DNA of 63,045 bases, the filler included, from Sluysia triapertura (Eukaryota), in assembly GCA_046118255.1 (NCBI GenBank). It is 5 parts of 5 records of this genome, joined end to end, with 100 filler letters (N's around TTAATTAATTAA, not from the genome) between each part and the next. Parts side by side here need not be neighbours in the genome. Positions count along the whole stretch, not along the records: positions 1 to 12,126 come from JBJNIA010136840.1; positions 12,227 to 25,179 come from JBJNIA010069507.1; positions 25,280 to 36,526 come from JBJNIA010186802.1; positions 36,627 to 50,824 come from JBJNIA010003891.1; positions 50,925 to 63,045 come from JBJNIA010137729.1. One strand, 5' to 3'. The notes beneath the pieces are model-generated. The model was not told the origin of the DNA. It searched no databases and was given only the letters and a program-made list of their open reading frames with translations. The number at the start of each line of letters is the position of its first letter. The stretch's first letter is position 1. This document shows, piece after piece, positions 3,752 through 54,167 of this stretch. The translations under genes and the position numbers were made by a program.

Positions 3752-3910
3752 TGTTGGGGTAAAAGGCCTAAAAAGTGCTAAGTAGTATAATTGAATATAT
3801 TAAAAATGAAATTGTTAGACGGGGCTTATAGCTCAGTGGTAGAGCATTCGAACTGCGCAGCGATGGTCCCGGGTTCGATCCCCGGTTAGTCCATTTTACG
3901 AAGTCTAACA
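3752..3910 (+). mobile_element. tRNA-Ala-bearing TG...CA mini-element, copy 1
   Basis: TGTTGGGGTAAAAGGCCTAA 5' end; internal TGTTAGAC at 3813; tRNA-like unit 3822-3893; TTTT; GTCTAACA end. No clear TSD. Confidence 0.85.
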
Positions 3911-4067
3911 ATTTGTTTAATTAGCTTGATAGCACGCAGTACGAACACGAAGTGATCATCTGAGAGACAAATACAATGCAACTGGGTAGCAGAAGCAATA
4001 TGTTAGTCGTCGCAGCCCGTAGGATTCTTAGAACGCAAAACAATGATTTTCATTATTTTTAATTCTA

Positions 4068-4149
4068 AAAGTCGGAACGTCTCGAGACTCGGGACAACTT
4101 GTGAAAAATCGGGAATATCCCGCCAAAAGCGGGACGTCTGGTCACCTTA
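4068..4149. mobile_element. Terminal fragment of a hAT (Blackjack-like) DNA transposon
   Basis: Repeated CGGGA(C) subterminal motifs ending in CTGGTCACCTTA, the complement of a TAGGGTGACCAG-like TIR; partner end not seen. Confidence 0.55.
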
Positions 4150-4159
4150 CACCATTGTC

Positions 4160-5650
4160 ATCTATTTGATTTTTATTATTCACTTCAAGAGCATTTTTCT
4201 CCTTTTCTAACTCCTTATCTTTCAACTCCTGTTTCTTTTAAATATTAAGATAATAGTCGTACATATAATCTATAAATGCATATTCTTCTTTTTGTCTATT
4301 ATATCTATCTTTAATTTCATCATCATCGTCACCGTATAATTTTATTCTAGAGAACTCATTAACAAATCCATCTTTATGCCTTTTATTATATTCCATCGAT
4401 CTCGTATAGTTTTCTTCTTCAGAATCATAATCTCTTGCGTTTCTTCATCATAATTATTGGGACTGTTTCGGATTTTATTAAAATTATAATTTATTTGTCC
4501 CTACCCTTTTCTTAAAGTCATTAAATCTTGCTCTTCTATCAGAACTTGTTCTTCTTGAATAATATTGCATTTTAGATTTTGATTAAAAGTTTCAGCTCTT
4601 TTAATTTCTAGCATAGTGACCTTGCTTACAACAGTTAGTACAAATTACATTCCCTTCTATGTTTGTCTGAGTCTTATAGTTATTATTATCATTAAATTTA
4701 GCAGGACTCCTGTTTCTAGTGTTACGTCTATTACTTTGTTGATCAAAATATTCACCAGCCGGACTTGGCCAACGCGGTGCAGGTTTTTGTTTTCAACCAT
4801 TAAAGCCTGAGGATTTGTTATTGCTTTTAAAACCCAAATTGTTATTATTTCTAAAAGCCTGCGAGTTATTTCTCTAAAATTATTTCTAACCCATAGAGAA
4901 TCATTATACCTTAGAGCTTTATTTGTTTTAAAATTATTTCCTCTATTAAAATTGTTACCTCTGTAATTAGAATTATTTCCTCTAAAATTGGGATTAGTAG
5001 TATTATAACTATTTACTCTATAATCTAAATGATTATCATATCCATCATTAAAATTAAAGTTTTTATGCTCAAATCTTGGAGACTCCATTTTCTTAAAATT
5101 TCTATTTTTATAGTTATCTTCGTTATCACTTACGTAACTTATATTATCTTTTTCTTCAGTTCGAGATTTCTCGATGCCCCTTAATTTTTTAACAATATCT
5201 CTAAAGGATAAATCATCATTTAGACTTACATACGCTCCTAACTCTGAACGCAGGCCATTTTTAACTTATCAATTAAAACATTTTCCTTTTTATCATCAGG
5301 AATTTTAGCTCTAGCTAGTAAAGACTTTAATGCGCATGCAAATTCATATATAGTTTCCTTAATCTTTTGTTTTCTTACATTGAGCATCTTATTGTAATAC
5401 TTACCTATATCGTCGAGAACTATTTCTTCAGCATTGCAATAAGATGCAATTTTTGCTTATAACCTTTGCTTATCTCCTTAGAAGTTTGGATTGCCATTCC
5501 ACTGCAATACTACCATATTCAAAAAGAAAGTCACAGAGTTCTTCCTCTGCGTCGTTAAATTTTCTTAATTCAGGAGCGCCTAATATCCTTAGCAAATTGA
5601 GACATACAGTCTCGAAATTTTTCTATCGGTAAAGACATCTTATTAGTTGG
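4160..5650 (-). mobile_element. gag: Decayed LTR-retrotransposon (Ty3/Gypsy-like) gag
   Basis: Minus-strand KQKIKETIYEFACALKSLLARA (5307-5372), NGLRSEL (5239-5260), N/R/G-rich linker (ORF 4657-5088) and zinc knuckle ICTNCCKQGHYARN* (4601-4645); many stops and frameshifts. Confidence 0.7.
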
Positions 5651-6830
5651 TTTAGACTTTTAGACTTTTTCTTATTCTTAGTAAATTCAATTAAACTTCG
5701 TGTATCAATTCTGAAGACTTAAAAACTTAAATATAAACTTATAATTTATCAAAATAAAGATAAACCTAGTCAAATATCAAAACTTAACTTAAATAATAAT
5801 CCAAAAGGGTAAAAATTAAAATCGGAATTGAATCAAGAAAACTTAGTAAAATTCAGTAAACTCAATAATTACAAATCAAAATCTTATGAAACTTAATCGG
5901 AGAAGCTTTTATCAATAAACTTAATACTTAATAACAATGAAATAAACTTATAATCAAACTTAAAACTTATATAACTTATCAATTAAACTCTAAAACTTAG
6001 TGGGTAATGTTAAAAATCGTACAAAACTTAACAAATTTCAAAAAACTTATAAACTTAGATAAACTTCAAAAAGATACTTTAATACAATAAAATCGCAAGA
6101 AAATTGTACTTATAAACTTAACTTTTATCAGAATTTTATAACTTTATATTTTATAACTTGCTTAAAACTTATGTAAAATTCAAATAATCAACTGAAACTT
6201 AGCAAAGACTATGAAAATTAATGAAATCCTTATGGAATAACTTAAAATAACTGTTAAACTTATATAACTTTATATCAAACTTAAATAAATCGTACAAAAC
6301 TTATAAAAATTAGGGCAAATACGTAAGAAACTTATAAATTCTTACTTAAACTTATACGAAAACTTATAAAAATCAACTAAAACTTATGAAATGCTTAAGA
6401 GGTAATCAAAATAATCACATATAAACTTAAAGTTAATAGAAATTTGACTTAATTATCAAAATATGGGATAACTTAAACTTATGACTTAAAAATTCAAAAT
6501 ATAACACTTAAACTCGTTAAAATTCACAATTTAAAAGCTTAAACTTAATGGAAACATACAGTAATCACAAAATATATAATATAACTTCAACGTATAGCTT
6601 AAAAATACAAAATTAGACTTAATTTGCTTAACTTGCTTAAAAATCGAAATAACAATAAAATTCAAACTTATATCCTTAAACTTATTAAAATCTTGTCGAA
6701 ATAACGTAGAAAACAGCTTATAAAATGTAAATAGATCCAAAACTTGATTTATACTTGAACGACAACGAACTGATCGAATACAAACAAATCTGATAAGAAA
6801 CTTCATTTGTGGTGTCGTTCGGAAAGAAGC
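5650..6830 (-). repeat. Low-complexity AAACTTA-rich tract, probable 5' leader of the adjacent gag remnant
   Basis: Dozens of AAACTT(A) motifs with strong strand bias directly upstream of gag; a similar tract in the opposite orientation at about 51900-52170. Confidence 0.5.
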
Positions 6831-6831
6831 C

Positions 6832-7780
6832 ACTGTCGAAGAACATCATATTGCTCTGAAATTCAATTAATTTTGTGAAAGTGAATACTTTTGATGAGAA
6901 ATAAAACTACTGTTGCCATAAGGTTGTGATATTTTTTCTGATTCAAATCCTAATTATAAAAACTTCATTAAAAACGTAAGAAATTATAGTAACGCAATAA
7001 CATTTGCATTGATTGGAACATAAATTACTCACATGTCTGTATGTAGTACGTACTGTTATAAATTACAAGAACAGGTTTATCACAGAATATCTGCACTTCA
7101 TCTGAATGCAAGAGAGCGACCATAGTTCGCTTATATTTATATATTTGACTCCGAAAAAACATTGAATGAACGAATGAATACAAAATCAAATAATAATTGC
7201 GATAGAGAATTATTGTCACAACTTGATCAGCATATAGTCAGTCCTTTCGCTGAAGTATACAAAATGATCTTTGAGTTAGAAATGAAATTGGAAATAAAAA
7301 TGTATCAATCACAAACTGAATCTCAAAATAGTAGCAGTTTTAATGTTATTGAGAAATTTGAAAACTAAAAGATGTCTTTGCAATCAAATTAGATTAGAAA
7401 TTGAAGAATTCAAAATAACATAATTGCGGCTAAAGTTCTAACAGGATCTTCGATTGGTGAAGTGATAGTAATACCTTGAACTGATCTAATTCCCTCTGAT
7501 CTGGATCTTTCTTTTCAAATACGAAGACGACAGTTTCCGGTTAGACATGCATTCGTAATGACAATCAGTAAATCTCCAGGACAAACTTTTGATAACGTCG
7601 GAATCAATTTAAGGGCACCAGCTTTCACTCATGGTAATTTTTATGTAGCTTTTTTCAAGAGCTAAAAGAGCGTCAATCAAAAGTGTAGATAATTAGTACT
7701 GATAAAGAAGGAAAGCTTTTCAGAAAATTACAAAGATCATTTAATCCATATTGTTTTTACAAAGAAATTTTCAGCCTTTG
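6832..7780 (+). mobile_element. Internally deleted Helitron RepHel remnant
   Basis: N-terminal pieces KNFIKNVRNYSNAITFALIG and YCYKLQEQVYHRISALH...FAYIYIFDSEKTLNERM...SPFAEVYKM, then Pif1 helicase C-terminus KVLTGSSIGEVIVIP*TDLIPSDLDLSFQIRRRQFPVRHAFVMTISKSPGQTFDNVGINLRAPAFTHGNFYVAF (7411-7655). Confidence 0.85.
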
Positions 7781-8854
7781 ATAGTATAAATATATGGTAA
7801 GCATAACAAATTCATTTTAGAGCAATATTCTTTCGCCTGAATTAACAAGAAATTATTAAATTGTATTATGAAAATTTTACATTTTGATACTTCTTTAAGT
7901 ACAACTAAAATATAAATTTATTTTGATTATGATTGCGAATAAATCATTTTAAATATTGTTTTATTTATTAATTTTAAGTAATATTAATTTTATTTATTGT
8001 TACCTTGAAATTTTTATTTACAATTAAGCGAAGTGAATTCATTTATAAGGAATTTAAAAAATATTTAAAAAAATATTTCTGAACGAGCTTTACATCTGAT
8101 ATTAAATAATCAGTTACTACACTTTTGTTAATGATTTCCTAACACTGAAATAATCAATATCAAAACAAAATCACAACAGTTTTAAAGAAAATTCAATTTT
8201 TTTACGTACTAAAGGAATTTTTCGTATCCACGATATCTTAAGTACGCTAATAAATTATTCAGGAAAATTTTATACTAAAACGATATTTAATTATTCCATT
8301 CAATCTATTTGAAGACTTTCTTTTTTATTCTGTAAGGATTAAGTGCTACTGATATTAATAAGAAGCTTTAAACAATGATAAATCCTCAAGTTAAAAACTT
8401 TTAAAGTAGTATTTAAATTAATTTGTCTTGTTTAAATTGGTTTTTAAAAATATTAAATAATTTTTCTGACTACTCCATATCACATTTTCGAACGTTTAGA
8501 ATTAGAAATGTAAATTCATTTTTGTATAAATTAATTAACTTTAAATAATCGATTAAGTTTTAAGTAAAATTATATCAAATCTGTTATTACTTTATTGATT
8601 AATTTTTACAAATTTTGAAATTTTTGGAAAAGAAATTCAAATTATAAATGATTTTTGTTTCTAAAAATTTAAGTTTGTAATTAGTAAATATTTGCCAAAC
8701 CTAAATTATAAAATTAGTAAAATAAATATCAAATAGTAAAATAAAATAAAATAATAAATAAATAAGTAAATAAATTCATATAAATATTATTTAAGTAGTT
8801 TAAATTAAATATATAATAAATTCTTAATATTTTATATAATTAAATTTAATTTAA

Positions 8855-9238
8855 TTAATGTGATGACAAAATGAAATCTAAATATGACATATATCGAATA
8901 GCTAAACGCAAAATTTCTATTTTCGACAATTTTTTATCTGGTGGAAATGTTGGTAACAAATTTCTGAGCTGCAAAAATGCTCCATTGAATGCTTCTACTC
9001 TGACACGTTCTCGGGCTGCATGTGCATTTCTATATTTTTGAGTTGCACGCCGCTTACGTCTTCTTTCTTCTTTAGTCATATTCGAATTTGTATTTACCTT
9101 TTTCAAATTATTTTCATTATTGGAACTGTATATTATTGGATTAGTAGAATTGGTTTGCATAGTAACAACTGAACATTCGACTATATTTATTGAATTATCC
9201 GTTTTAGATGTAAAAGAAATGTGATTAGTTTTTGTCAT
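8855..9238 (-). CDS. NHLH: Nescient helix-loop-helix (NHLH/NSCL/HEN family) bHLH transcription factor, single coding exon, 127 aa
   Basis: C-terminal [66 protein letters not shown] matches the NHLH1/2 bHLH signature; intact ATG to TAA ORF. Confidence 0.93.
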
Positions 9239-10132
9239 AAATGAAAAATGTAATTATTTAAAAATAGATATGAAAATCAATATTGATACATTTATATTTT
9301 TTGAAATTTCAATTTTCATTTGTAAATTATCTTACTCCAATAATATTTATTTATTAAAATTCATGTTGCATTCTGTTGTTTTAATGGATAATTGTTTAAC
9401 TTATGCGCACAGTTTTTAGCTTTAATAATAACTAAAATTAATAATTAGTAATTATTAATTAGTAATTATAATAATAATTTACGAAATGTTGCAATGATAA
9501 ATAAAATTGAAATTATTGATAATTGTCATTTTTTGGGCATGATTTTAAAATATAAGATATATATACATGCTAGGAAATTTATAACTATATAAAATTTCTA
9601 AAAGTTTTAATATAAATGGAATATGTATGTTATTGTTACTGGTACCGGAAGAAGTAGATTAAATTTGTATATGCTGAAGAATTATATCTCATTCGGATAA
9701 AATGATACAGATATTTGAATTCACCAAAATATGCAGACATTTTACAAAGTTAAAGTATAGAAGATTTACTGAACGATTACGTATTTCAATACGATAAAAT
9801 TATAATTAATAATCTATTTTTAAATTTTCTTTATAATGATATTTTTATTCAACCTTTTAAATTTAACCAGATGTCTAATTAAATAATTTTTTAATTTTTA
9901 TTAATTTTATTTTTGTAGTAAAATATATTTTTACTCTTATTTTTTTCTAAATGTTATTTGAATATTTTCTGTTTTTAAATATATAATTAAAATATTTAAA
10001 TTAACTTTTTAACTTTAAATTAAAAACTCAAAAAATCAAAATAAGATTTAATCTCAAATATATTCTCTATATCACAATTAATACAATTTATTAATTATAA
10101 ATATAAATTAAGACATTAAATAGCTTTACAGC

Positions 10133-10290
10133 TGTTGGGGTAAAAAAGGCCTAAAGTGCCACATAGTATAATGGACTATAGAAATATAAAATTATTAGAC
10201 AGGGCTGATAGCTCATTGGTAGAGCATCGAACTGCGCAGCTAGAGGTCCCGGGTTCGATCCTCGGTCAGTCCATTTTACGAAGTCTAACA
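10133..10290 (+). mobile_element. tRNA-Ala-bearing TG...CA mini-element, copy 2
   Basis: Same architecture; fully paired acceptor stem GGGCTGA/TCAGTCC-A; A box TAGCTCATTGG, B box GGTTCGATCC. Confidence 0.87.
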
Positions 10291-12126
10291 TAGTGCAGCA
10301 ATAACAAAAATGAGGCTACCAAAATTGTAATAATCAATGTAAAACGAAGTATAATAACAAACTCGAATAAATAAATAATAACAAAAGTAATAACTCGAAT
10401 CTATCGCATAGATTTCCGCTCAATGTTAGACGAAATATAACTCGAGGTTCATAATTAAAATAATTTTGTTACGAAATTGGAAAAGAAAAGAGCTCGCTTA
10501 TAAAGTAAATTTTAATCATATTTGTCCAAAAGGACAAATAATGCACAAATTGTGTTGAGTTTAGTGAAAGATGACAGTATGCAAAAGTGTTATAGCTTAT
10601 GGTACATAAGAAAAAAAAATAAAAGGAATATTAATAAAAGAATAAAATTAAACACCGTGGTGGATTAAGTTTATTAATTGGATATACTCACAAAATGTTT
10701 AAATTAAAAAGAAAGAAAAAAAACCTTATACAAGTTTTTATTTGTGAAAATATAAAAATTCATGTGCTAATTAATTTAATTGGAAATTGTTTTGACTTAA
10801 CTTTATGTATGTAAGATGTTTGTGTATGAGAAAATGACATCCGAACTGAAGTATAATGTTGATATTCATCAATGTTTCTAATAGTGATGTGACGCAGATA
10901 ATTATTTATTTCAATTAATTTTCTATAATGTAAAGTTAAATTTATATATGTTGTAATGTTCATATTTAATGTTCATTAAAGCGTATGTTATTGAAATCGA
11001 CGTGTAACGTATTGATTTAAATGTTACTATGGAAAAGAAGTTGTTGCATATTTGATTGATTTTATCTTTAATTTAAGTTAATAAATTATTCAAACAGTAA
11101 ACATTACTATAATAAACGTGATAAATTTTGATAAGAGGATTGTTTGCTACATATCTCATTATTTTTAGGCAATTGTTAGAAGACAATAAGTTGGAAATTA
11201 ACGAAAATTTGATGGCAATTATGGTCGAAATTTGATTATTAATATTGGTCGGCTTATAACCGACTGAAAAGAATAAGTAATTATACAAAGTAATTATGTC
11301 GAATTTTCAATTTCTAATCTTCTCAGAAATTATTGAACAGCTGCATAAGCGATCGAATTGTTCCTAAAAATTCATTGCTAAATTCCAGAGTAAAATGTCG
11401 AACAAAAACCTCTCGTGCTGCAGGAGAGCTGCTCCAACGTTATATTGGCAAACATTGCAACAGGAGCTTTAACAAATGATTAAATTTTTAATTTTTTCTT
11501 TATGTATTTTTGCAGTTAGTTAATTCACGTTTTGTTACATTTTTTAGGTTGTGTCATACCTGGATTTGAGTACTATATTTTAATAGTTCATCGTGTAACG
11601 AAATTGATTTATATCATTATCAAAGTATAAGTGATTGTAATAATTTGAATTTGTTTTGGGATTATTAAAAATATTGATAATAATAACAAAAATATATTAA
11701 TTATTTTTAAGTAAAATCTTTGCCCGAAGGCTGTACACTTAATGATTTTATCTTCGAACTAGATATTTCTTCAGAATCTTCGTTTGATTTTTTTTGCAGT
11801 CACAAGGGCAGAATTTGCAGTATGATCTGGAACATGGATTGGAGCATTTCTTGGAGGTGGGGCTGTATTGCTGTTGTTTATTGTCTGATTGTTGGGTACC
11901 GGGACAAGACATGATTCATGTGGATACTATATGACATTTTCACCATTCCAATGGAAATATCAACAAGTAATTTATTTATTGACAATCTGCTGAATGTAAA
12001 AGTTCCAAGGATACTAATATTCTCAGGATTCATTGTTCCCATAACCGGAAAGATTAACCCCTTACCGGTTTTATTTTTTTTCTGTGAATGGTCAAAAACT
12101 GACTTAATTTTTTTTTTAAATTTAAC

Positions 12127-12226
12127 NNNNNNNNNNNNNNNNNNNNNNNNNNNNNNNNNNNNNNNNNNNNTTAATTAATTAANNNNNNNNNNNNNNNNNN
12201 NNNNNNNNNNNNNNNNNNNNNNNNNN
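12127..12226. other. Assembly gap with artificial all-frame stop linker; also 25180-25279, 36527-36626, 50825-50924
   Basis: Identical N44-TTAATTAATTAA-N44 blocks. Confidence 0.97.
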
Positions 12227-14914
12227 ATATATACATATTATTATTATATCATTGTATAATCTATTTTGAAACGTCTTTTGCGAATAAATTATATCAATTC
12301 TTAATTTTTATTATAAACTACAATTTACATAGTTTCAAATATAAAATTAGTCGTTCTTTATGATTTCAATAGCTAGAATTTCTGTAGCTACGTAAAATAA
12401 CATTTAAAGATTCCATGTAAAGGAATCTAAGAAAAATCACCTTATAAACTTGATCATTATTATTAATTCTTTTAGATAAATTTCTTTAATATCATTACTT
12501 ACCTCCAGGTGTTTAAAGATTTTAAACCTTGCAGTTTTATCAGAAGTTTTCTTTTTTGAGACTCTTTTAATTTAATTAACTGGTAAGCCCAGTACGTTGG
12601 TGAACTCATACTAAGTTCTGGATTTATTCTATTGCTTCACTTTTAATTTCTCACACATTTAATTTGATTTTTGTTTTGAAAATCTTTATATTTTACAAGA
12701 AATGATGAATAAACGAATAATTTAAGTAAAAGGTTGGAATTATTGAAAAAGGAATATTATATAAGTAAATATTATATTATTAGATACTTATATTTAATGA
12801 ATTACTGTAGTAATAATGAATAGATATACTTGTAAAATAATATATTAAATAAAATAAAGTTTTTCAATTAAATTACGCCAAAAAATAAATTAGTTACTTT
12901 TAAATTTTTTAAAAACTCTGCATTAAAGCAAAATTTAAAAAGATGAATTATTTATACATTTTAATTAAATCTGATACAGGGCATTTTTCAATAGATATGT
13001 AAATATTATATTATATTTCCAACTTTTAATAAAACATTTTTTTATAATCATGTGATAAGAAATCAAAATTTGAACTTCAAAAATAACGACTTTCGGCTTA
13101 CGTATGTATAAAATCGCTTATTTTATTTAATTATATACAAAAATGTTTATATAATATGAATTTGGCATAATATAATGAAGTAGTTAATGTTTTGTAATTA
13201 TTTACTTGCTTTATTATTTTAACTTGCCTCTGTTAGTCTAAGATAAAAGTGTAATGTGAGTTCGAGTATAAAGACACTGTAAGATAAATGAATTTCGTCA
13301 TTCTTAATAAAATAATTTCTTTACTTTTTAAACAAAAACAAATAGTTTATTTTATTTTATTTTCATTACTTTATTTAATTATAATCATGTACATCAGACT
13401 GTTACAGACGCTTTATCTGTCAATATATTAAACTATTGCATTTATTTATATTTACTTAGATCAAAATAAAAGATCTCCAAAATAATAATTATTTAAATTT
13501 GATAAAATTCTCCGAGTCAATTCGCTTGATCAAAATTCAGTGGTGATAATAATTTTTATCTACTTGGGTCAAAATAATAATAATAATTTTATATAACACA
13601 TGTTTATTCCTTGAGATCAAAATTCATTGGTGATAGTAATCTCAAATTCTCCAAAATAATTATATTTGAATAAAATGTTCATATTTTATTTGTATCTCTT
13701 ATAAAGTGTTTATACAGAATATTTGCACACGCGTTCACTGCAGAATGTCACAAACTTCGACTTATAAGATAACTCGCAGTTAGCTGCAAAATTGTTAAAC
13801 AAATATGATATTTTATAAAATTCTGAGTTTTTTTCTCTTCAGGATTTATAGCCAGTAATTATTTAATCTTCTTCATCGATATTCAACTTTCCTTTGCTTC
13901 TATATTTCATTAGTTAACTAATTTAACAAGTTATCTCGTAGATAAAAGTTTGTGTTATATTTGCAAGAAAAGTAGTACTTAATGCGAAGAATAAAACTTA
14001 AAAGATATCAGTGAGTCCACCAACGTCTTGGTCTTACTGACTTAACGGCCAAGCGTTGGATTTTGTCGTAAAAGTAAAAATGGAGGTTAATCAATCAAGT
14101 CTCTTTGGGTTATCACAAACTTAGGCTAGATCAATGACAAATTTAAATTAAGCTTTAATATATCAAAAATGATCAAATTAATAAAATATCAAATAATTTA
14201 ATTACGTAAATGATTTTATGGGCAAATTCAAATTTTAGTTTGATTTTAATTTAAATTTTAAAAATCCTATAATTATTGATATTACTCAGGTTTGAGTATA
14301 CAAACCTTTTATAACAAAGAATTTACTTGGGTTCAAATAAACTGAACCCTTAAAAAATTATTGAAAGTTACTTAGGTTCTTTCTCGAACCTGTACGTGTA
14401 ATTTAAAAATTAATAAGATGGTTTACTACAAATTTTTATTATAAAACAAAATGTTATATACAATTGAAAATATATAAATAATAAAGTTATAATAGATTAT
14501 TGTTACAATAATAATCTTTTTACAAAAAATTTTAGAATAATTTACTTAGTTTCCGATAAAAGGAAACTTTTAAAAAATTAAAAAATAAGTAATTTAAGTA
14601 AAATGTTACTTTGCAAATTCTAATTGCTATCTCTTAAAAACTAACGTTAATAAAATCAACGAATGTTGTGATGGACAGTTTCTTAATCGGAGTGCGTCTG
14701 GATATACTGCGAAGAGTGGTGTTGAAATAAATTATTGGTACGTATTAAAAATCGTCGAAGAGACGGTGTTCCTTTGAAAGATGTGTAAAAATTTAAACTT
14801 GAAAAGTTGTAAGTGAAAAGTTGTGTGAAGCAGTGTTTAATTGGTCTTATATTTATACCTTTTTATCTTCAAGGTTATTCAGTTAAATGAAATTATTAGA
14901 ATTAAACAAAATTA

Positions 14915-15774: not shown

Positions 15775-15813
<39 letters not shown>

Positions 15814-18590: not shown

Positions 18591-18746
18591 TATTGTGATA
18601 CAGGCCTAAGGTACCACTTGGTATGGTTGACTATTCTAATCTAAAAATTGTTAGATTGGGCTGATAACTCAGTGGAAGAGCATCGAAATGCGCAGCGAGA
18701 GGTCCGGGGTTCGATCCTAGGTCAGTCTATTTTATGAAGTCTAACA
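18591..18746 (+). mobile_element. tRNA-Ala-bearing TG...CA mini-element, copy 3
   Basis: Same architecture (5' end decayed to TATTGTGATA); flanked by a 4-bp direct repeat GTAT at 18587-18590 and 18747-18750. Confidence 0.85.

Positions 18747-20952: not shown

Positions 20953-21020
<68 letters not shown>
20953..21020. repeat. (AAT)n microsatellite; others at about 15775-15812, 30692-30743, 35276-35324, 36270-36490, 39596-39672, 47043-47103
   Basis: Directly visible trinucleotide runs. Confidence 0.95.
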
Positions 21021-21354: not shown

Positions 21355-21482
21355 TGTTAGACTTCATAAAATGGACTGACACGGTATCGAACCCTGGACC
21401 TCTCGTTGCGCAGTTCGATGCTCTACCCATTGAGTTATCAGCCCCGTCTAACCATTTTATTATAGTTAATTTTACCGCAACA
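21355..21482 (-). mobile_element. tRNA-Ala-bearing TG...CA mini-element, copy 4 (deletion in 5' part)
   Basis: Reverse complement reads TGTTGCGGTAAAA...TGGTTAGAC-GGGGCTGATAACTCAATGGGTAGAGCATCGAACTGCGCAACGAGAGGTCCAGGGTTCGATACCGTGTCAGTCCA-TTTTATGAAGTCTAACA; flanks CTAT and CTAC. Confidence 0.85.
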
Positions 21483-26215: not shown

Positions 26216-27879
26216 TTTTGTTAGAGATGAGTTTATTATAACATACGGTTTAATTAACACATTTTGATATCGACATAAATGTAGTGTCGCGAGTGGTTCT
26301 TCTGGTTTAGGTAGCAATATTTCTGAAAATACATCGACAAAGGAAAAAATGTAACTAATACTAATTTAAAAACACGCTCGAACTCGTTAGACCAATCTGG
26401 ATTAACTGGAACGTTGAAGAAACGAAATACAAAGCGAAATCCCTAAATTTATCTGATGTTTGTGTTCGTAAACCGCAAAAGATATATGAAGAATGGTGAG
26501 TGACCTTGAAAGTGAAAACATTTTGGTCAAATGCGAATGTGGAGATGGATATAAAGAAATTTCAAGAAATGTCTAACATTATTGAACCTTCTCAATTAAG
26601 TATTATGTTAAACAGTTCAACAAATATCAGTACTATTAGTTCAAATGAATCATCATAACCATCAACACAAACCACCTCGAAAACTTCTACAAAAACATTA
26701 ATTTATCTACTACAGACAAATCGGATTCTTTTATTGAAACTTCAAGTAAGAATAAAATTTAAACAGAATCCACACAACCAACATTATTTCGTTCGGCAAC
26801 TCAACAACTTCTACATCCATCACCACTTTAACGAGAAACCAAGACCACAATCAATACTCAACAGTCAAGCATGGGAAGGTAATGCAAAATTAAAAGAATT
26901 ATCAAATCCTTGTAAAATACCAGCAAGCAGTGTTCAAAATAATCAAAATCAATTTTCATATAATTACATTTATTCTCAATATTATCAACATTGAATGATA
27001 TGATGTCGGTACCTGAAATTATAAAAATAAGTAGATACAAAACTAATATTAATTTAGTTATAATTATTTTGTTATGATTATAATTATTTTGTTATGATTA
27101 TAATTATTTCAATAGTATAATTATTTGGTAAACTGCATTTTAAAAAAATCGATAATATATAATCTACAAAATATATTTAATCGTCATTTATGACAATTTA
27201 ATAAATTTGTTTAATCGTCAACATTCAAATTTTCAATCACGGTTAACCAATTAGACGACCTCATTCTAGTTTTACTCCTGAACTTGAAGTAAAACGGTTT
27301 CGCTCGATTGATGCTAGAATAGAACATGAAGGCATATTAAAAAAGAAGTCAAAATATGATACAATTGAAAAGTATAGGCTAGAAAATACGCGATCATCAA
27401 ATTATGTATGTCTAGTTCAAGGTATGGACTTAGTTATGTGTTTTATATTATGCTTTTACTTGTATTTAATCTTAATAAAAAATACGTTAAATTGTTTAAT
27501 ATTTTTGTTCAAAAATTTTAGAATTGAGTTTAAAAAGTTTTAAAGTTAACATGTTTTTACAATTAAAATTATATATATATATATCTTAAAAGTAAAATTT
27601 CGTTAATGTTTCACAATAAATTTTTGTTTACTTTTATGATAAATATAACTTTCTCTCACTAAAATAACTTAAAGTTTTTTTTATTCTTTTATTGACATTC
27701 TACTTTTATCTTTATCATTGCGCAATTAATCATCATCAATACGAAAAGTTTTTCATTGTAGCGGCATGAATTTAATTAACTTTAGTTGGTGAAATAACAT
27801 GACAATAATTATTATGATAATAATATTAATAATACTTGTGGTGGTCAACCCAATAATTTGAAATTTTATAGCAATAAAA

Positions 27880-28600
27880 TATAACAAATCACTCTTCAGA
27901 ATATTTCATAATTGGTATTACCTTCAAATATTTCAAACATAAAATTTCACAACATCAAAATCATAATCAAAATCGCAAGTCATCAAATATATTTAAAAAA
28001 TTAATTCAAAACATCGTTAATTTAATTTAACACATCGCACATAAAATCATATTTTATATCATCTAACCGTTTTTTTCATCAAAACCTTTTTCATGTTTTA
28101 TTTCCTTCACATCCACTAAAACTTTATTCCAACCTTTTCAAAACATTCCTATTTTATTACCTTATAACATTAGAATCACAATTTACATCTTAAATTATCA
28201 AATTTACAACTTAAAAATTCAATCCAAAATATTTCAAGTTTACAGTCCTCAACATTCATTACCTAATATTGAAAACATTAAATCAACATTAAATCATGTT
28301 TAGACATTGCAATCAAATTGTTACTTTTTAACATTTTTAGTTACGCATTATTTCCTTTAAACATTTTCCTATCAACTCCTTAAACACATTACATAGTTTA
28401 CTAATCACCGAATAAGGTCCTCTTCAAAAGAATCTGAATATAATTTTATTTTAAATCATTTTTCAAGGAACTTAAATGTCTGGAAACAGAATAAATTAAA
28501 GAAAGATCGTGTTTAGAGGATATTAAAGAGATTTATGTTTTTATTCTTATTTAATTTTAATTATTACTATTTAATTATTATCATGTTAGTAGCAATAATT
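27880..28600 (+). repeat. About 700-bp dispersed G-poor repeat, copy B
   Basis: CACTCTTCAGAAT...AAACATAAAATTTCACAAC shared with copy C; other blocks shared with copy A. Confidence 0.7.
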
Positions 28601-36749: not shown

Positions 36750-37085
36750 CTCCACATTGTCAATTATAATTCTTTTAAATTTGATATCACATTATTCTCT
36801 CTATTCTGCTTAATCTTTGATCGAGAATAATAATACATTTTAATTACACACTAGTTTTATTCAATCTCAATTTATTATAAATATAAATTTAATTTTAATT
36901 GGATTTTATGTTCTTGAAGTTTGATTTCATATTGTCTTTATGGAATCTCACTTTAAAATGATTATTTATTTATTCATCTTGATGATGATTTTAATTTTAT
37001 TTAAAATAATTTTAAGAATTTAAAGAATAAATTTAAATTAAATAGATTGGATTTTAAAATTTTGAAGAATAAATGAACATTTCTT
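36750..37085 (+). repeat. Dispersed repeat, inverted partner of 50000-50395
   Basis: Blocks such as GTTTTATTCAATCTCA, TTTATGTTCTT and TTTAAAATGATTATTTATTTA recur collinearly as reverse complements at 50000-50395. Confidence 0.75.
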
Positions 37086-39593: not shown

Positions 39594-39672
<79 letters not shown>

Positions 39673-44009: not shown

Positions 44010-44221
44010 CACATTAAAGGCGAGGGATCTTGACGAAATTTAAAAATTTACTGTAAGTAGAATTTGAACAACCGAACAGCTTCAAACCACAAAACATACT
44101 AAATAAAATGTAAAGTGGGGCATGGATTGCGCAATGTGATTGCAAAGCGTACTAATACGACTCCCGCCTTTAAGCTACAGTCGAGATAAATCGTAGTACT
44201 ACGACTTCCGCCTTTAATGTG
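44010..44221. mobile_element. piggyBac-type MITE, 212 bp
   Basis: TTAA|CACATTAAAGGCG ... CGCCTTTAATGTG|TTAA; internal second copy of TACGACTCCCGCCTTTAA at about 44156-44173. Confidence 0.85.
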
Positions 44222-44959
44222 TTAAGAGATTGCTGCTTGCATAGCTTCTGAAAATTTTTGAAAGACTAAAAATGTTTGAAATTTAAAAAATAAATATATA
44301 ATGAAAAATTTCGAAATATCAAATCAAGATGTGCTTATTATTGAATATCCATGAAAAAAAGTATTGAAATTTCAGGTGGTGCTTAAGATATAAAATATGA
44401 GAGAAGATGCTTAATTGCTTTGTATGGAAATAAAAAATCGTAAAACTGGTGAAACAACATTTATTCCGGAAGCTCTGCGTTTTGTCAAGTCTCTATCATT
44501 TTGTGGTTATAAGGTTGCTAATTAATAAAAATATTTTGGTTAAGATGAATTTTTTTGTTACTCAAAATAACGATGGAGAATGTCGGATCATTAGAAGTAG
44601 AGTTAGATGATATCTGAAATTGAAACGCCGAAATTATGGTGAAGAAACGAAATATTTTATTTATATTAATCATGAAGAACAAATCGAAGTCCCTAACAGC
44701 GATAGAAAATCTAACTGTATTTCTAATTTTTAATCAATTACACCTTATACGGATAGTGAAACGTTTCGAAGAATAGCTGAATTTGAATATATATTGAAGT
44801 TCATTATTGTTATTTCAAATTCCATAACGATAAAATTAAAATTTGCAAAGGGCACTAAAATTTGCTAGAGTAAATGACAAATTTAATACTATTAAACGTA
44901 CAAATGCATAATTTCTTTTTAACATAAATTGAAAACAACCAAATCCTATTCATCACATG

Positions 44960-45150
44960 CATTGTCAGTAAAACAGGAAATTTTAGATGGAAAATAATGT
45001 GTAATCACATCAAAATAGAAGAGTAATCTCAAGCGAAATATGTTATTCCGTAATAGGAAGTGTCCAGTAATTATTTATGCCTTAAAACAATTCAAACAAT
45101 ATTTCGTGACAAAAATACCCTTACATGAACCATTGGTGCACTTAGGTGGT
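44960..45150 (+). mobile_element. Ty3/Gypsy-like RNase H fragment
   Basis: KCPVIIYALKQFKQYF...LHEPLVHL resembles the ECLAIxxALxxFxxYL...TDHxPL motif; preceded by EILDGK. Confidence 0.45.
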
Positions 45151-47040
45151 ATTAGACATATCTGCCACATTTTAAATAAAAGTAGTTATTAAAAGTAGTT
45201 ATCTAGTAAAAGTAGTTGATAATATATTAAAAAATACAAATGTTTTTAATTTCGGAAGTAATGGGTTAATAAATAAATGTTTTTTCTTTCGCATCTTTCT
45301 TTTGAAATTCCTTGACTAAATTTAAGATACCTTACTTAATTTTAAAATTTATTAAAAATGACTTTAAAAAAGTTTGATATTCCATGAGAAAATAAATAGC
45401 AAAAATACTAATATGTATTTCTTATCAATTTCTACAATTATTACATTTTAATAGGAAAAAGTGTAAAGTTAGAAATTATTTGCCTTAAGGTAAGAATATC
45501 AAGCCAATATATAAAAAGTTCAAATTAAAAAATGTGTTTTGCAACATTTGTGCTGTCACAAAGAAGCATACTTTGTATTATACTTAAATGTTTTTAATCA
45601 GCATTTAAATTGTGTATTAGATATTTGTAAATAAAGAAATGTATAATCTTAATTTAATTTACAAACTTATTTTAATGTCTGAAAAATACATAAAATCTAA
45701 AAATAAGTATAGATTGTATTTTTAATGTTGTATTAATTAATTAATTGCTAAATAGCTTACGGGTATGCTAGTTTGCAAATTATTTTAAAAAAATATAATT
45801 CACTAATTAATGCTAATTTAATAATGCATTGCTTTACATAGATTTTTACTTCTTGATTATAATAATACAGTATAATTTACACAAACAAAATGAATATAAA
45901 TATTATAATTAATTCGACATAATTAGAAAATGCGGTTTTATTTTTGAATTCTATTATGTTAAAAAATATTTTAGAATTATGTATTTCATTAATAAAATTT
46001 CATAAATGTTTGATTCATTGAATGACAGATTTTAATTATCGAAATTGAATATTTAATTTTTAGTATTTATTTGACAAACAATAGCTTATTATTTTCAAAT
46101 AAAAACACTTGATTGAGAAATTAGATTACTGCTGAATATACAATGATAAATAATAGCAGATATTTATCATTAAGTTTCATGAATTAATTTATTGTACAAT
46201 TATTGGTAATTAAATATTAATATTAAAAATATTTTTAAATCAATATTGAATATTAAATTATTTATATTTAATAAATTAGCTTTAGTTGAATTATGTTAAT
46301 TAGGTATCGGTTTGGTAAACAAGAGGTAAAGGTCGAAATTTTGAATTGAATTTATTACTAAATGTGCCTAAGCATCTTAAAATCATGTGTGCATTTTCAT
46401 AAGCTTGTTAATGTAACTCTAACGGTACCTACTTATTGAAATATAATAGTTACAACAAATCATCAGTCGGCTTGTAACTAATGGAATTAATATTTTACCA
46501 AAATGGCACTGCATGGCGAACGAGGTGAAATTAAGACCTCATCGAAAGTTTGTAAAAGTCTATAATTACTTGAAAAAATTGTAATCTTTTGAAAGCTCAT
46601 AGAGGTATTTTTAAAGTCGAAGATTTATTATTGGTCAAAAAGTACAAAATAAATACAACTACATATTTCTTGTATTCAAATAAATAAGGTTATGTTAATG
46701 ACAGATTGCACATTACATAATTTTCATATTGATTTGATATTATTATTGAGCGCAATGGAAAATTATTACTATTTATTACAAAATTATATATTTGCAGTTA
46801 TGTGTAAAAAAATTATTGAGAATTTACTTTTCTAAGAAATTGAAAACACTGTTTACAATCAATTTAATATAGGTTTTTTAATGTTTACTTAATCAGTATT
46901 TAAAATAATATCGAATGTAAATTTTTCATCATTTAAAATAAAAATATTGTACATTCTTTTGTACATTTGTAAACAGCAATGTTGAAATTCCAGAGTTAAT
47001 TCATTAAAAAGGGTGTGAAAAAAGTGCATAATATATAAGC

Positions 47041-47106
<66 letters not shown>

Positions 47107-47619
47107 TTAATTAATTTTTTATTAATTTTCCGGTTGATTAAATTTTTTATGCATTATTAATATAAAAAAAATTTAAATTAAAAATTTATATAAAAATTAT
47201 TTACTTTTAATTAAAATAAATTTGAATTGAATTAATTTTTTTATTCTTAAGCATTAATATAATGGAGATATGTATTTGTAACTTTGTATCATTATTTATA
47301 CTTTTAAACAAATTTGACCTGTTTATAAGTTTTCGTTTTGTAATTAAGTTATTATTAAGTACTTTAATTATAAGCAATAGAAAATCAGTAAATTTAAATT
47401 TTATTAAAACAGATTTTATTTTCTGAGTTTTATGCAAATAATTATTTGATATTAAGCGAGACAAACTTTATATTAATTTAGGGTGGTGAATAGCCATTAG
47501 TTTGCTAACACTAAAAGTTTATATATGAAAAAGGTCTAAAGCAAAACAATAGTAAACATTTGTCCATACTTTGTTAAATCACTGTTAAAATACTTTAAGA
47601 ATTTTATTTCATCAATACA

Positions 47620-48300
47620 CAATAAAACCACTCTTCAGAATGTTCTCAATTGTTATTACCATCAAGCATTTTAAACATAAAATTTCACAACAGAATATCT
47701 TATTCGACATCGAAAATCATCAAACATGCACTTTAAAAATTAAATTGAAACATTTTAAAATTAATTTAACACATTTCATAACATTTTACCCATCTTTCTA
47801 TCAAAACCTTTTTCATATTTTATTTCTTCAGATCCACCAGAACTATTCTCATTTTAAGTTACATTTTTATGACACCAAAATCACTTCTACATCCAAAACC
47901 ATTAACACACATTAAATTTTATTCAAAACATTTTAATCCACAATTTCATAACACCAGAATTACAATTTACATCAAAAACACATCTTAAAACTAACCCAAA
48001 ATATTTCAAGTTCTCAATACATTCACACTCAAGTATTTACATTTGAAAAACTTTAAGTTCACACCTTTAACCGTTTTTGACATTTTCAAGTCAACAAACT
48101 TCATTTTTGTCAAATTCATTTAATTATATGCTGAGAAATAAGTCATTAAAAGCAAAGCTTGTGTATAAAATATTTGAAGACAAAGTTTATGCGTTTATCT
48201 TTATTCTATTTTATTTATTATTATTATTACTACTTTATAATTAGTATTATTATTTCATTTAAATTTTATTATCTATACATATTATTATCATTACCATTAT
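47620..48300 (+). repeat. About 700-bp dispersed G-poor repeat, copy C
   Basis: As above; ACACATTAAATTTTATTCAA shared with 2427-2446. Confidence 0.7.
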
Positions 48301-49999
48301 TAACTGTCATATTTTGATTTAACTACTCTATGATTTCGGTTGCTATCTAACTAATTAAAGTAAATCTGTCATTACCTGACAGAAAGTTATACAGGCACAC
48401 AGATTCATTTCGTGTTAGCTGTGTGATGAGTGTTAGGTGCGTGATTATAGCAGTTGATTGGACAGCGAATCAAAACGATTTTAACATTTTAAGTTTACTC
48501 ACTGCCATTGCACGCCCAATCAACATCGTTAACTTATTTATGCAGCCTAAAATTAAACAACATATAATATAAAGAAGCCGATGCGTTAGACACAAAAATA
48601 AATAAAAATTAATAAACATTTGTGTTACTCAAAAATTTAAAAAAGAAAAACGCAACGATTATATAGTTAAAAGAAAAGTATTTCAGAAAATAAACGAGAA
48701 GGATAATGATAATGCTAACTCAAAATTACTTAAATTTCAAAGGCCATGTTCGTTATCATTTTCAAATAAAAATTCTATTCACAGGTTAATGCTTCATTTA
48801 ATACCTATTCCATCAATCGATGTTGATAATAATACAGTTTATTATGTTGTGTCATTATTGATCATGAAGCATTCTCAATGTTTAAAATGTGAATTAAAGA
48901 TTTCACATACTAACAAAACAATACCTTTTGATATTGATACTTTCGAATTGATAGACATTCAAGCTGTACGAAAATTAACAAAATTTATTCATTCATTCTA
49001 AAACTCAATGTATAAAGTTCTTCAATGTTTCATTAAGATTTACAGTATTTGTTTCAAGTCATTATTTTCAAGAACTAAAAAGAATACAATATCGCATCAA
49101 AAACGCTCTTCAAGTCATGCCAAACAATTAATCTACTCATTGTTTACTAATGCGCGCGAACCGGTTACAAATACTTACGCTAAATCAAGCACCTATCCAT
49201 TTTATCTCTTTCTCCGACATATTAGTTATTCAAGTTAATTTTGGATTTTTAAATTGGTATCGTCAATGATATAGTTGAACCGTCGATCGAATTTCAAGAC
49301 CAATCTATCTTCCCGCCATCTTTAGATACAATTTCTATCAATCGACTACAAACAGCACAATGGCGCAGCCAACTCGATCGTTATAACAGGTGCATAATGT
49401 ATGGATTATACTGTCCATGCTTTCATAACATAACCCAAATCGACAACAATTGTGACTTATCAACAGGATATAGAATAAGAGTTGATCAACTAATGATATC
49501 ATTAAAGCACGGAGCTCAACAATCATGCGGACAAATTGATACTATCGCATCAAACGAGATCTACAATAGCACCCACATCATCCACAATGTAATTTCACTT
49601 CTTTTACCAAATTTTATAGATAAATTTTATTATTTATTATTTTACAGGAATCTGCAATCCGAAGGGCTGGCAATGCATTTGACACCAACAGTAACAATAT
49701 CTAATATACAGAATTTAAAAATATTAATGGTAAAATTTAAACTAAATATTTATAAAAATAAAACTTCCTGTCTTTTTTCGTTTATTTTAATATTTATTCG
49801 GATATATCTGAAATAAAAGAATTACGTATAAATCTTATTAAATCAATTTTATTATACTATCCAATTTTCATGAACTTATACATATAGATTTTAAATTATA
49901 CTACCTAAAATCACATTGGAGGACTTGTACTAGGAGACTTGATTGTACTTTATGACTAAATTCTTAGGCGTATCTGAAAAATTGAATTTAGTAGTGTAA

Positions 50000-50395
50000 C
50001 ATAATGTTCATTAAAATTTTATGATTCATTTCTCAACATTTAAAATCCAATCTAAATTCCATTTAATTTAAATCACAAATTCTTAAAATAAAATTATTCT
50101 TAAAATAAGATTTAATAGAGTTAAAATAAATTTAAAATTAAGTAACCAGTTTTAAATTGAAATTAAATAAATAATCATTTTAAAATGAGATTTTATAAAG
50201 AGAATGTAAATTCAAACTTTAAGAACATAAAGTCCAATATAAGTCATTTTAATACATATGTTAAAATTATGTTAAACTGAGATTGAATAAAACTTGTATG
50301 TAATTAAAAATTAGTAACATTCTCGATTAAAATTAACTTAAATTAAGGATTGGTCAGAATGTGGTATCAAAATTAAAAGCATTATAATCGACAAA
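50000..50395 (-). repeat. Dispersed repeat, inverted partner of 36750-37085
   Basis: TGAGATTGAATAAAAC, AAGAACATAAA, TAAATAAATAATCATTTTAAA. Confidence 0.75.
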
Positions 50396-52483
50396 TATCA
50401 TCTTAAAATTAGAATGAATATAAATTATATGTAATCAAAATTTAATAACAAACTATTTAAGCAGAAGGCAATATTTGTTATATAGTATTATAATTTTTCT
50501 GTAAATATTATTACTGATATTTATTAAAACTGTAAATACTATTAACTAAATTATTATTATTGTATAATTATTATCGTACAATACTACTGTTATATAACCA
50601 AAATGTACTTTGTATATTTTTTATTAAAATTATAAATACTGTTAACTAGATACTACTAATATAAATTACTGTTGTATTAAAATTAAGATTATTATGATAC
50701 AAAATTAAATTATTGTTAATATTGGTGAAAAAGTATACCCTCTATTGTGAAACACGAAAAACTATAAATAGCTAAATAAATTTTACACAAAACACAAAGA
50801 AGTCGTCTTATACCCATATATATANNNNNNNNNNNNNNNNNNNNNNNNNNNNNNNNNNNNNNNNNNNNTTAATTAATTAANNNNNNNNNNNNNNNNNNNN
50901 NNNNNNNNNNNNNNNNNNNNNNNNACCTTAATAAAGGGTTGTGTAAATATAAAATAAATTTTCTCATACAACATCTCATTAAGGGAGTTGTGTAATTTTC
51001 TTTATCTTAACAACACCATAAAAAGGGTTGTGAAATCTAAATAAAATATTAATTAAAGAAAATTAATTTTATTCAGCTGTAAAACACATATATAAACTAA
51101 AGCTAATTCATCATAAGATAATTAATTAGTTTACGTAGTTTTTTAAGTTAAAATTCTAAATTCTAAAAACTTAGTAATACGTCTCCAAGTTTGGTATAAA
51201 GCGTATATACTAAGCGAACTAACCCTACAGATAATTTGTTAGGAATAAGGAAAATTCTAACATAAGTTTATTATTAAAGGTTATGGAATTGATATACATT
51301 ATTTCTGTTTTATTTACATTATTTAAATTTCGCTCTTTTAAGTTATTAATACGTTATTAATAATTAATTATTCTTAATTTTAATTGATATAAGTTCATTA
51401 AGTTCGATAAATCTACATTTGACAAGTCTTACGTTTTTTAAGACTTAAAATAATATTTTGTTTTATTTATTTCATTTAACTTTTTATTTTGATTATAAGT
51501 TGCTGATTAAAGTTTTTGTTTGGTGAATAAATACTTAATCTTACCAATACATGAAATTAAGTGTTACGAGTTCGCCTACGATCATAGACTTCTACACTTA
51601 AGGACTAGTTGGTAGAATTTGGAAAAACGTATTAACGGAGTTCTGATAATGGTAAGCTTTCTTATATGTCAAAGGAGAACGACGGTAATAGTAATGATAT
51701 CTTTGTTGAATTATGCAATTAGGTTATATAATATTAAATGTTCAAACGTAATTTATTTAAGGATTAATTAAATATGCATGGATAATCTGCAATAATATTT
51801 CAAGATTGAATTTCAATGATTAAAATCAATTACTTTGGTTTTGTGATTTGATGAATTAATACTGTTAATTTATTGAGACTTTAATGAGTTGTTCCCATCA
51901 TTTAATATTAGCTTAAGTAAGTTAAATTTTGATTGCTTTTCGATAAGTTATAAGTTTTAAATTCAAGTATTTATTTGATTATTATTTTGATTAAAATTCG
52001 TTAAGTTTTTTAATAATTGATACATTTTTGATTTGATTTAAGTAATAAGTTCGTAAAAGTTTCCATAAGTTATTTGTGAAGTTTATTAGATTTTAATTTT
52101 TGCTATTTCTATAATTTCGATATTTTATGAGGTTTTTCATTGATTTTGACATTATCTAATAGTTGATTTTTGAAACATAGATGGTATAGTTACCTTATCA
52201 TTTCTACATTTCGGAAAAATTATGTATCCTAAAGATATTCAATGTGGTTTCCGCATTTTTTATTATTTCCAAGAGATATTTAAGACTAAATATATTTAAA
52301 TATTTTTAACACTTTAAATATTTTTAGGCCACTAAATATATTTTATTTGAAGAATTAAAGTGCAAAATTTTTTGTACCTTATTTAAAAATTATCTCAAAA
52401 GTTAAATTACTAATGTTTATTTAGTTTATGTACGAATTTTAAGTTACTTTTGTTTTACTATTTAAGTTTTTGCTTGTTTTAAA

Positions 52484-53188
52484 ATGCCGAAAAATAAAGG
52501 TTGACTTACTATGAATAATTTTTAATTTATTTTATATAGGAAAGGGCGGTAAAAACAGAAGAAGAGGAAAGAATGAAAATGAGGCAGTTAAACGAGAACT
52601 TATTTTTAAAGAAGATGGTCAAGGTTAAATATTTTTCTTTTATTATTTAATAACAGAATACGCTAAAGTAGAAAAAATTTTGGGAAATGGTCGTTTAGAA
52701 GCTGATTGTTTTGATGGTAAGAAGAGATTGTGTCATATTCGCGGGAAGTTAAGAAAGAAGGTGTGGATTAACCAGGGCGATATTATTTTGGTTGGTCTTA
52801 GAGATTATCAAGATGGGAAAGCAGATGTGATAATGAAATATAACGCCGAAGAAGCACGAACTCTAAAATCTTATAAGGAAATTCCTGATAATATAAAAAT
52901 AGAAGAAGATAACGATATCGAATTCGACGCTACTGCTCAAGTAGATGCTGTAGATGGTGATGACAACAGTGAAAAATCGGGTTCTGAAGCTTCTGAAGAA
53001 GAGGAAGTGGAAGGTGAAGAAGATGCTGAAGACGAAGAAGAGGATGATATTCCTAATTGGGCTAGTAAAAATCCCGTCAGAAATATTAAATGGGAGAAAA
53101 ATAAACAAAGAAATAAAAAGAATAATAATGACTTCATTGAAAAGGTAAATTGATTCTGTATGTATTCACTACTTATTTTTAGATTTAA
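52484..53188 (+). CDS. EIF1A: Translation initiation factor eIF1A, 4 exons: 52484-52499, 52540-52623, 52657-53144, 53183-53188 (197 aa)
   Basis: Spliced translation [95 protein letters not shown]...; GT-AG introns 52500-52539, 52624-52656, 53145-53182 keep the frame; last exon is ATT TAA. Confidence 0.95.
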
Positions 53189-54014
53189 GAATGATCTATT
53201 TGAATTCGAAACTAAAACTTTCCTTTCGATGAAGTTATTTGCAATACATATGTAATTGTCTTTTAATATAGTTAAAGGAATGATATTTGAAGTGATTATT
53301 AATTTTTTGCCAATAAAGGTTTTAGTTTTAAAATTTATATCAAGCGTTAGAAATACGTAATGTCTAAAGTGTAACTAGAGAAGTGTAATTTCTCTAAAAA
53401 GGAAAAAACAATTAATATTATAAAGATATATTTACAGTGAAATGAAAAATTGAACTTTAGTTGAAAATGTTTTAGCGAGTATATTTTATTGTTGCGTAGA
53501 ATTTTACTTGTATTTTAATTTTAATTTATGTATAATAGCATTACTTGTAAATATTTAAACTGAGATTAGATTGTATGGATTTAAATATATTGAAGTGTTT
53601 TTACTTTCTTTTAGGCAATGGCTGAGTAATTACTATAATCTAATACTTGTGATCTTAAATTTGTGAATGTTGAAAATAATGCGTTTTATGTATAAGTTTT
53701 AGAAAACGATTTTAAACATCCGATAAAATTTTAATTGAGTTTAAAGTTATTTAAAGTTACAAATAATATGTAATATGTGTTTACAAATTATTCGTTTCTG
53801 AAAATGTTCACTGTAAAATTGTACTTTTTAGGCAAATGTAAAAACGACGATTCAGTAAAATTATTTATAATGATGGCATTAAACTTTAGGCAAAAATACC
53901 CAATATGTTATATGTTGATACCTTAATTTGAATAGTTAAAACTTTTTTAAATTAGAAATTCTTCTGAACACGTTTTTTGAGTTTTTTTTACAGGTGAAAG
54001 TTTGATTTTATAAA

Positions 54015-54167
54015 TGTTGAGGTATAGGCCTAAAGTGCCATTTAGAATAAAGACAGTATGATTAATTATAAAATAAAATTGTTAGAGGGGGCAGCACCGA
54101 GTTGCACAGCTGTGAGGTAAGACGGCCCGGGTTCTAATCCTGATCAGTCATTTAATGAAGTCTAATG
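54015..54167 (+). mobile_element. tRNA-Ala-bearing TG...CA mini-element, copy 5 (degenerate tRNA part)
   Basis: TGTTGAGGTATAGGCCTAAAGTGCCA...TTGTTAGAGGGGGC...CCCGGGTTCTAATCCTGATCAGTCATTTAATGAAGTCTAATG. Confidence 0.75.

Follow-up and report, generated by a model that had tools for sequence, protein, structure and literature searches.

Short TGT...ACA repeats with a tRNA-like unit in Sluysia triapertura: probable solo long terminal repeats of a Helenus-type element

Miniature terminal-repeat retrotransposons (TRIMs) with a tRNA-like sequence in their long terminal repeats (LTRs) were described by Kojima in 2024 under the name Helenus (TRIMp3; PMC10886601). In that account, boxes A and B of the tRNA-like sequence are conserved, and the units are mostly non-functional as tRNA. 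Animal Helenus elements generate 4-bp target-site duplications (TSDs) and have LTRs of 104-323 bp (Table S1 of PMC10886601), in which the order of parts is TGT, a variable upstream part, the tRNA-like unit, usually a T-run, a short tail and ACA. Helenus includes families known solely as solo LTRs, and in several families LTRs outnumber interiors by at least 10:1. Transcription of Helenus by RNA polymerase III (Pol III) and its mobilisation by Gypsy helpers stand without experimental validation in the same account. The subject here is a set of five repeats in a 63,045-nucleotide stretch from Sluysia triapertura (assembly GCA_046118255.1; five parts of five records joined end to end, hereafter the window), which are probably solo LTRs of a new flatworm family of Helenus.

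The design, a tRNA-like unit within an LTR, is already known from Helenus and is apparently unreported in flatworms. Platyhelminthes are not among the six animal phyla of Table S1, nor does the main text of PMC10886601 refer to them, and among the matches listed for literature from 2024 on that names Helenus or TRIMp3, two papers citing the original add no hosts. No such family appears among the matches listed for the flatworm repeat literature, a search with Repbase, Dfam and subscription journals outside its scope. A sequence-only reading of the window had named the plant TRIM Cassandra as an analogy and knew of no element with a full tRNA unit inside its own inner pair of inverted repeats; as to novelty it was mistaken, because the tRNA counterpart of Cassandra was published in 2024 as Helenus, including the 4-bp TSDs of the animal families (PMC10886601).

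Five copies in the window

The five copies were first placed by the sequence-only reading, and blastn and alignments agree with its coordinates and confirm that the copies are homologous. An nhmmer search of the window with a five-copy profile returned no sixth copy, the next match having an E of 8.7. The copies and the parts of two of them are:

3752..3910, + strand: copy 1, 159 bp, TGT...ACA, boxes A and B intact, no TSD
3813..3910, + strand: inner unit of copy 1, 98 bp, a perfect 8-bp inverted repeat (TGTTAGAC/GTCTAACA) enclosing the tRNA-like unit, a run of four T's (T4) and the tail
3822..3893, + strand: tRNA-like unit of copy 1, Rfam RF00005 at 47.2 bits, ARAGORN call without a readable anticodon
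10133..10290, + strand: copy 2, 158 bp, TGT...ACA, flanks CAGC/TAGT, reference for the family boundaries in the public run X1 (below)
10202..10273, + strand: tRNA-like unit of copy 2, paired at 7/7 acceptor, 4/4 D, 5/5 T and 2/5 anticodon-stem positions, with G3-U70 and A73
18591..18746, + strand: copy 3, 156 bp, left end decayed to TA, exact 4-bp TSD GTAT
21355..21482, - strand: copy 4, 128 bp, about 30 bp of the upstream part lost, both ends kept, flanks GTAG/ATAG
54015..54167, + strand: copy 5, 153 bp, the most diverged, promoter boxes and right end decayed (TG), no TSD

In copies 1-5 respectively, an upstream part of 61, 60, 58, 29 and 65 bp precedes an inner unit of 98, 98, 98, 99 and 88 bp, which consists of TGTTAGAC or a decayed form of it, the 72-nt tRNA-like unit, T4 and then the reverse complement GTCTAACA. 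This order of parts is the same as that of the Helenus LTRs in Data S1 of PMC10886601, compared by eye, and the total lengths (153-159 bp in four copies, 128 bp in copy 4) fall within the animal Helenus range given above. Inner units of copies 1-4 are identical at 84-89 of 97-98 positions and that of copy 5 at 61-65 of 86-88; the 17-base tail is exact in four of the five copies and has 3 mismatches in copy 5. The inner unit folds no better than its shuffles (z -1.2 and -1.5).

Homology among the upstream parts of copies 1, 2, 3 and 5 exceeds chance (no more than 1 in about 991 random segments reaches their score), and the upstream part of copy 2 is 72-86% like those of copies 1, 3 and 5. Homology is weaker for the 29 bp left in copy 4, which are equalled by 2-35 of about 994 random segments and are missed by a profile built without copy 4. 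The sequence-only reading was right that the segment upstream and the tail are carried along with the tRNA-like unit. The block GGCCTAAAGTGCC, taken to be common to the copies, is found in three of the five (up to 3 mismatches allowed) but is deleted in copy 4.

The tRNA-like unit scores above the Rfam gathering cut-off in copies 1, 2 and 4 (47.2, 42.2 and 31.2 bits), and ARAGORN calls one of the five, copy 1, with an anticodon that is not readable. Boxes A and B match the search patterns in four copies, both being lost in copy 5. Stems in copies 1-4 retain 6-7 of 7 acceptor, 3-4 of 4 D and 3-5 of 5 T pairs, and the anticodon stem of every copy is reduced to 0-2 of 5 pairs. Each of the five has G3-U70 and A73. 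The G3-U70 pair is the identity mark of alanine tRNAs, so that "tRNA-Ala-like" is a fair name for the acceptor end. The description "whole tRNA", in contrast, does not survive the broken anticodon stem or the loss of both promoter boxes in copy 5. Judged by its predicted stems, the unit is not a working tRNA, in line with most published Helenus, and under the Helenus reading it would serve as an internal Pol III promoter.

TG...CA ends, claimed for the repeat as a whole, are kept at both sides in copies 1, 2 and 4, where the termini read inward TGTTG on the left and TGTTA on the right; copy 3 starts with TA and copy 5 ends with TG. The claimed 4-bp TSD also stands in part. The 4-bp flanks are identical at copy 3 (GTAT/GTAT), agree at 3 of 4 positions at copy 4 (GTAG/ATAG), differ by two transitions at copy 2 (CAGC/TAGT), and are unrelated at copies 1 (AAAC/ATTT) and 5 (TAAA/CTTA). 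When TSD lengths of 2-8 were compared with the window background by simulation, length 4 alone rose above it (P=0.007, or about 0.05 allowing for seven lengths; the other six P≥0.12). Because this length was proposed from these same copies, the signal for a 4-bp TSD is no more than suggestive. Perfect identity between the outer ends is limited to 4 bases, with matches at 5-8 of their first 20, and the perfect 8-bp inverted repeat pairs the right end with the inner start, not with the outer left end.

The family in public run X1

One public run, X1, contains part of the stretch; no RNA data set containing it was listed, which is uninformative about expression. Its contigs were mapped on positions 9990-10470 (481 bp around copy 2) at an 80% likeness cut-off, and the detail covers 6 of 379 loose-end rows, 15 of 23 joints and 8 of 9,965 pieces. 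The number of mapped contigs is 9,886, of which a part belongs to a second repeat at about 10007-10108, and a variant carried by 60 contigs of the run has letters in common with copy 1. Summed contig depth, which is not a copy number, is 127 directly left of copy 2, then 11,063-36,163 across its first 40 bases and 600,000-2,300,000 for the greater part of the inner unit; at the right end it drops from about 1,000,000 to 57. The sequence into which contigs pass there (265 of them at 10290, a further 79 at 10291) is unrelated and AT-rich (agreement 0.43-0.44). On the left, 69 contigs diverging at 10147 have a TGTTGG start in common, preceded by unrelated AT-rich sequence. The sharp depth edges and unrelated flanks argue that both ends are fixed family-wide and that the family is abundant, as the sequence-only reading had predicted from the number of copies in the window.

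The second repeat is a separate AT-rich family at about 9948-10108, upstream of copy 2; it has an inverted self-match (blastn), and its summed depth in the same run is 7,000-13,000 at 10024-10091.

Some contigs enter the repeat within the tRNA-like unit, 97 beginning at 10225 and 78 at 10242, with other upstream sequence. The consensus of those beginning at 10225 ends in a T-rich run with TGTT (agreement 0.52), and in one contig a start of this type lies 11 bases past the right end of another copy. The two starts possibly mark short subfamilies without box A. In the window, the start motif of the short variant occurs twice, and neither occurrence precedes a repeat. Exact-pattern scans for the tail gave 0 loci in metagenome, viral and genome contig collections.

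How the repeats may have moved

Under the Helenus reading, a full-length master would consist of an LTR, a primer-binding site (PBS), a short interior, a polypurine tract (PPT) and a second LTR. Transcription by Pol III would begin in the left LTR, at its tRNA-like unit, and would sometimes run past T4 into the right LTR, and a Gypsy-type helper would package and reverse-transcribe this read-through RNA. Copying from the right LTR would restore the U3 region (69 bp, upstream of the tRNA), and the left LTR would supply the U5 region (the 13-bp tail); this rebuilding in the LTR cycle would explain how sequence on either side of the usual transcript comes to be copied along with it. Integration would be the work of the helper integrase, inserting the TGT...ACA ends at a 4-bp stagger, and recombination between LTRs would leave the single units seen. 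A broken gag-like remnant in two frames adjoins copy 1 (4657-5456, - strand); it has no Pfam match, and its Atlas neighbours are Retrotrans_gag clusters with a score of 0.93 and low shared-feature counts (119-134), which makes it a lead only. Such a remnant in the window suggests that LTR helpers likely existed in this genome.

Several observations weigh against this reading. The pairs of copies around a PBS and PPT that the sequence-only reading had looked to for an LTR model do not appear: none of the five copies has a partner LTR within 1,500 bp, a TGG in its first 8 downstream bases or a G-rich purine tract upstream (0/5 in each case). Solo LTRs would be expected to lack all of these, yet their absence keeps membership in Helenus likely rather than shown. 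A four-motif search of the PMC10886601 supplement gave no relationship to a named Helenus family. In run X1, the consensus of the 265 right-end loose ends has no PBS, and no joint of a right end to a left end is found among the 15 of 23 joints examined, though short contigs would hide both. Only two of the five copies reach 3/4 identity between their 4-bp flanks, and copy 1 lacks a TSD despite its good preservation; a possible reason is that other element fragments cluster in its right flank. Depth rises about 7-fold between 10188 and 10194, a step that may come from existing inner-only units or may be an artefact, if the upstream part of copy 2 is too diverged from those of copies 1, 3 and 5 to pass the 80% cut-off. 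The loose ends at 10225 give hints of a variant of about 77 bp that starts with TGTT and lacks box A, which a TRIM driven by Pol III explains poorly. The perfect inner 8-bp copy of the right end is left unexplained by the Helenus reading.

A GC-rich stretch at about 4110-4150 ends in TGGTCACC and may resemble a hAT-type terminal repeat.

Other assignments were not upheld. The upstream 60 bp might have been a TRIM interior (PBS and PPT) before a 98-bp LTR, but no copy has a left LTR, likeness to the PBS of Helenus-1_TeGr ends after 6 bases, and the TSD signal is at the outer end. There is no support for the right flank of copy 2 as a decayed PBS followed by a second LTR at 10424, where there is no profile match, the local score is 20 against a null median of 23, and depth in run X1 is at background. 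The two highest-scoring flanks, upstream of copy 3 and downstream of copy 4, are AT-rich noise. Copy 1 as an LTR of the adjoining gag-like remnant is contradicted by the lack of a PPT and of a second LTR. A Helitron-type end is likewise rejected, since CA is conserved after CTAA and there is no fixed insertion dinucleotide.

That all five copies are single units without PBS or PPT is what one would expect of a non-autonomous DNA transposon resembling a miniature inverted-repeat transposable element (MITE). Its transposase, Ginger2-like or of another integrase type, would recognise short TGTNR ends and generate 4-bp TSDs, the tRNA-like unit would be a captured passenger, and deletion derivatives retaining a left TGTT and the fixed right end would spread as well. 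The TGTNR pattern, common to Ginger and Gypsy, fits both ends of copies 1, 2 and 4. There are at least three possible TGTT left ends (the outer one, the inner 8-mer and that of the short variant) against one right end, and depth in run X1 is greatest towards the right end. The outer ends, however, share only 4 perfect bases where Ginger terminal inverted repeats (TIRs) span 40-270 or 50-180 bp, and the flanks (GTAT, RTAG, YAGY and two without a TSD) are neither CCGG/CCGT nor RTATAY. The 80% cut-off applied to the diverged upstream part of copy 2 could itself produce the depth step, and upstream sequence is present in all five copies, arguing that inner-only units are not dominant in the window. 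The transposon explanation, the main rival, seems unlikely. The sequence-only reading had left the choice between a solo LTR analogous to Cassandra and a Ginger-like element; the solo LTR is the best fit, and Ginger fails on the TIRs and the Ginger1 TSD. The tRNA-Ala fragments that it placed in some Ginger1 TIRs find no counterpart either, since "tRNA" has 0 occurrences in the main text of PMC2836005 and nothing of the kind is among the matches listed. A compromise between the two is a tRNA-bearing LTR that escaped from the two-LTR cycle as a single unit and is moved at the DNA level by an integrase-like transposase, with one fixed right end and alternative TGTT left ends (forms of 158 and 98 bp and one of about 77 bp that lacks box A). 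This would link Helenus-type TRIMs to Ginger-like MITEs, and it must be considered rather improbable.

The fixed right end and the climb in depth towards it would also suit a tRNA-derived short interspersed element (SINE) moved by a long interspersed element (LINE), in which the tail is the LINE-recognition end and the upstream segment comes from read-in transcripts of a master locus; the loose ends within the tRNA part (10225 and 10242) could then be 5' truncations, and Schistosoma has a SINE family derived from tRNA-Gln (PMC2770079). The prospects of this explanation are poor. The tRNA-like unit begins 69 bp inside a fixed TGT left end, at about position 70 of 158, this left end is sharp across the contigs of run X1, an A-rich or microsatellite tail is lacking, and lengths of 5-8 bp give no sign of a TSD, so that the sequence-only reading was right to set aside a standard SINE. 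Still less can be said for the idea that small duplications scattered tRNA-Ala genes, functional or recently inactivated, along with their flanks. It would account for the largely paired acceptor, D and T stems and for G3-U70 and A73 in 5/5 copies. It is largely refuted, and scarcely credible, given 0-2/5 anticodon-stem pairs, one ARAGORN call in five with no anticodon, copies 10-25% diverged whose homology ends at identical points, and distinct flanks in hundreds of contigs of run X1.

If the Helenus reading is true, Platyhelminthes would be the seventh animal phylum with these elements, and the family, dense in the window with 5 copies in 63 kb, would probably be one more case in which an LTR independently acquired a tRNA promoter. 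With T4 following the tRNA-like unit immediately, the Pol III model can be tested cleanly, since it predicts mostly 75-nt RNAs and rare retrotransposable read-through. If no two-LTR form exists, the repeat would be a more unusual single-unit mobile element. The repeat is also a warning that programs predicting tRNA genes will report too many of them in this genome.

Host, neighbouring features and known systems

The window is about 24% GC and contains spliced genes. Its eIF1A exon has flatworm proteins as best named relatives. In a tree of 30 rows, 29 of them chosen from 120 listed (15 best plus 14 named outgroups) and none from a monogenean or triclad, the window sequence clusters with every one of the 11 named flatworms (98/97) but not inside the group of trematodes and cestodes (99/98). 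On the evidence of this single gene, the host appears to be a flatworm that is neither a trematode nor a cestode. The predicted protein-coding features are:

8858-9253, - strand: basic helix-loop-helix protein (PF00010)
52629-53153, + strand: eIF1A with a long acidic C-terminal extension (PF01176)
54852-56012, + strand: GATA-finger protein resembling p66/GATAD2 (PF00320)

Other repeats are also present. A piggyBac-type MITE at 59103-59350 has TTAA on both sides and CCCTTTCAGCCCC TIRs, and a second copy at 62944-63045, 96% identical over 97 bp, runs past the window end. Two further dispersed families, at about 68-81% identity, occupy 36757-37041 and 50083-50394, and 2199-2634, 27852-28255 and 47589-47980.

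Among known systems, IS481EU is like the present repeat in its TGT...ACA ends and is reported from parabasalids only (PMC10045372). Ginger1 and Ginger2/Tdd (Bao et al. 2010; PMC2836005) share TGTNR termini and make 4-bp TSDs, the length suggested for the present repeat, but differ in the TIRs (about 40-270 bp in Ginger1, 50-180 bp in Ginger2), the CCGG/CCGT TSD of Ginger1 and the RTATAY target of Ginger2, none of which is seen here. Cassandra of plants and Ajax of nemerteans, the latter with a 5-bp TSD, also carry a Pol III small-RNA promoter within the LTR, but theirs is derived from 5S rRNA rather than tRNA (PMC10886601). Taeniid cestodes carry ta-TRIM (Koziol et al. 2015; PMC4558846), a flatworm TRIM with TG...CA LTRs of about 198 bp, many solo LTRs, and TSDs that are mostly 4 bp in Echinococcus multilocularis (52/57); the available text of that paper describes no tRNA-like unit in the LTR, has 0 occurrences of "polymerase III" and reports no similar sequence outside taeniids.

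Helenus itself, for example Helenus-2_TeGr and Helenus-2_CGi of bivalves and Helenus-1_LiLo of a nemertean, differs from what is seen here in its two-LTR form, PBS and PPT, in the place of the inverted repeat of the right end, which here sits 60 bp inside and not at the left end, and in the tail past T4, which is just 13 bp in the present repeat. The likeness extends to a TGT...ACA unit of 100-300 bp with the same order of parts, a non-functional tRNA with boxes A and B, and the commonness of solo LTRs (PMC10886601).

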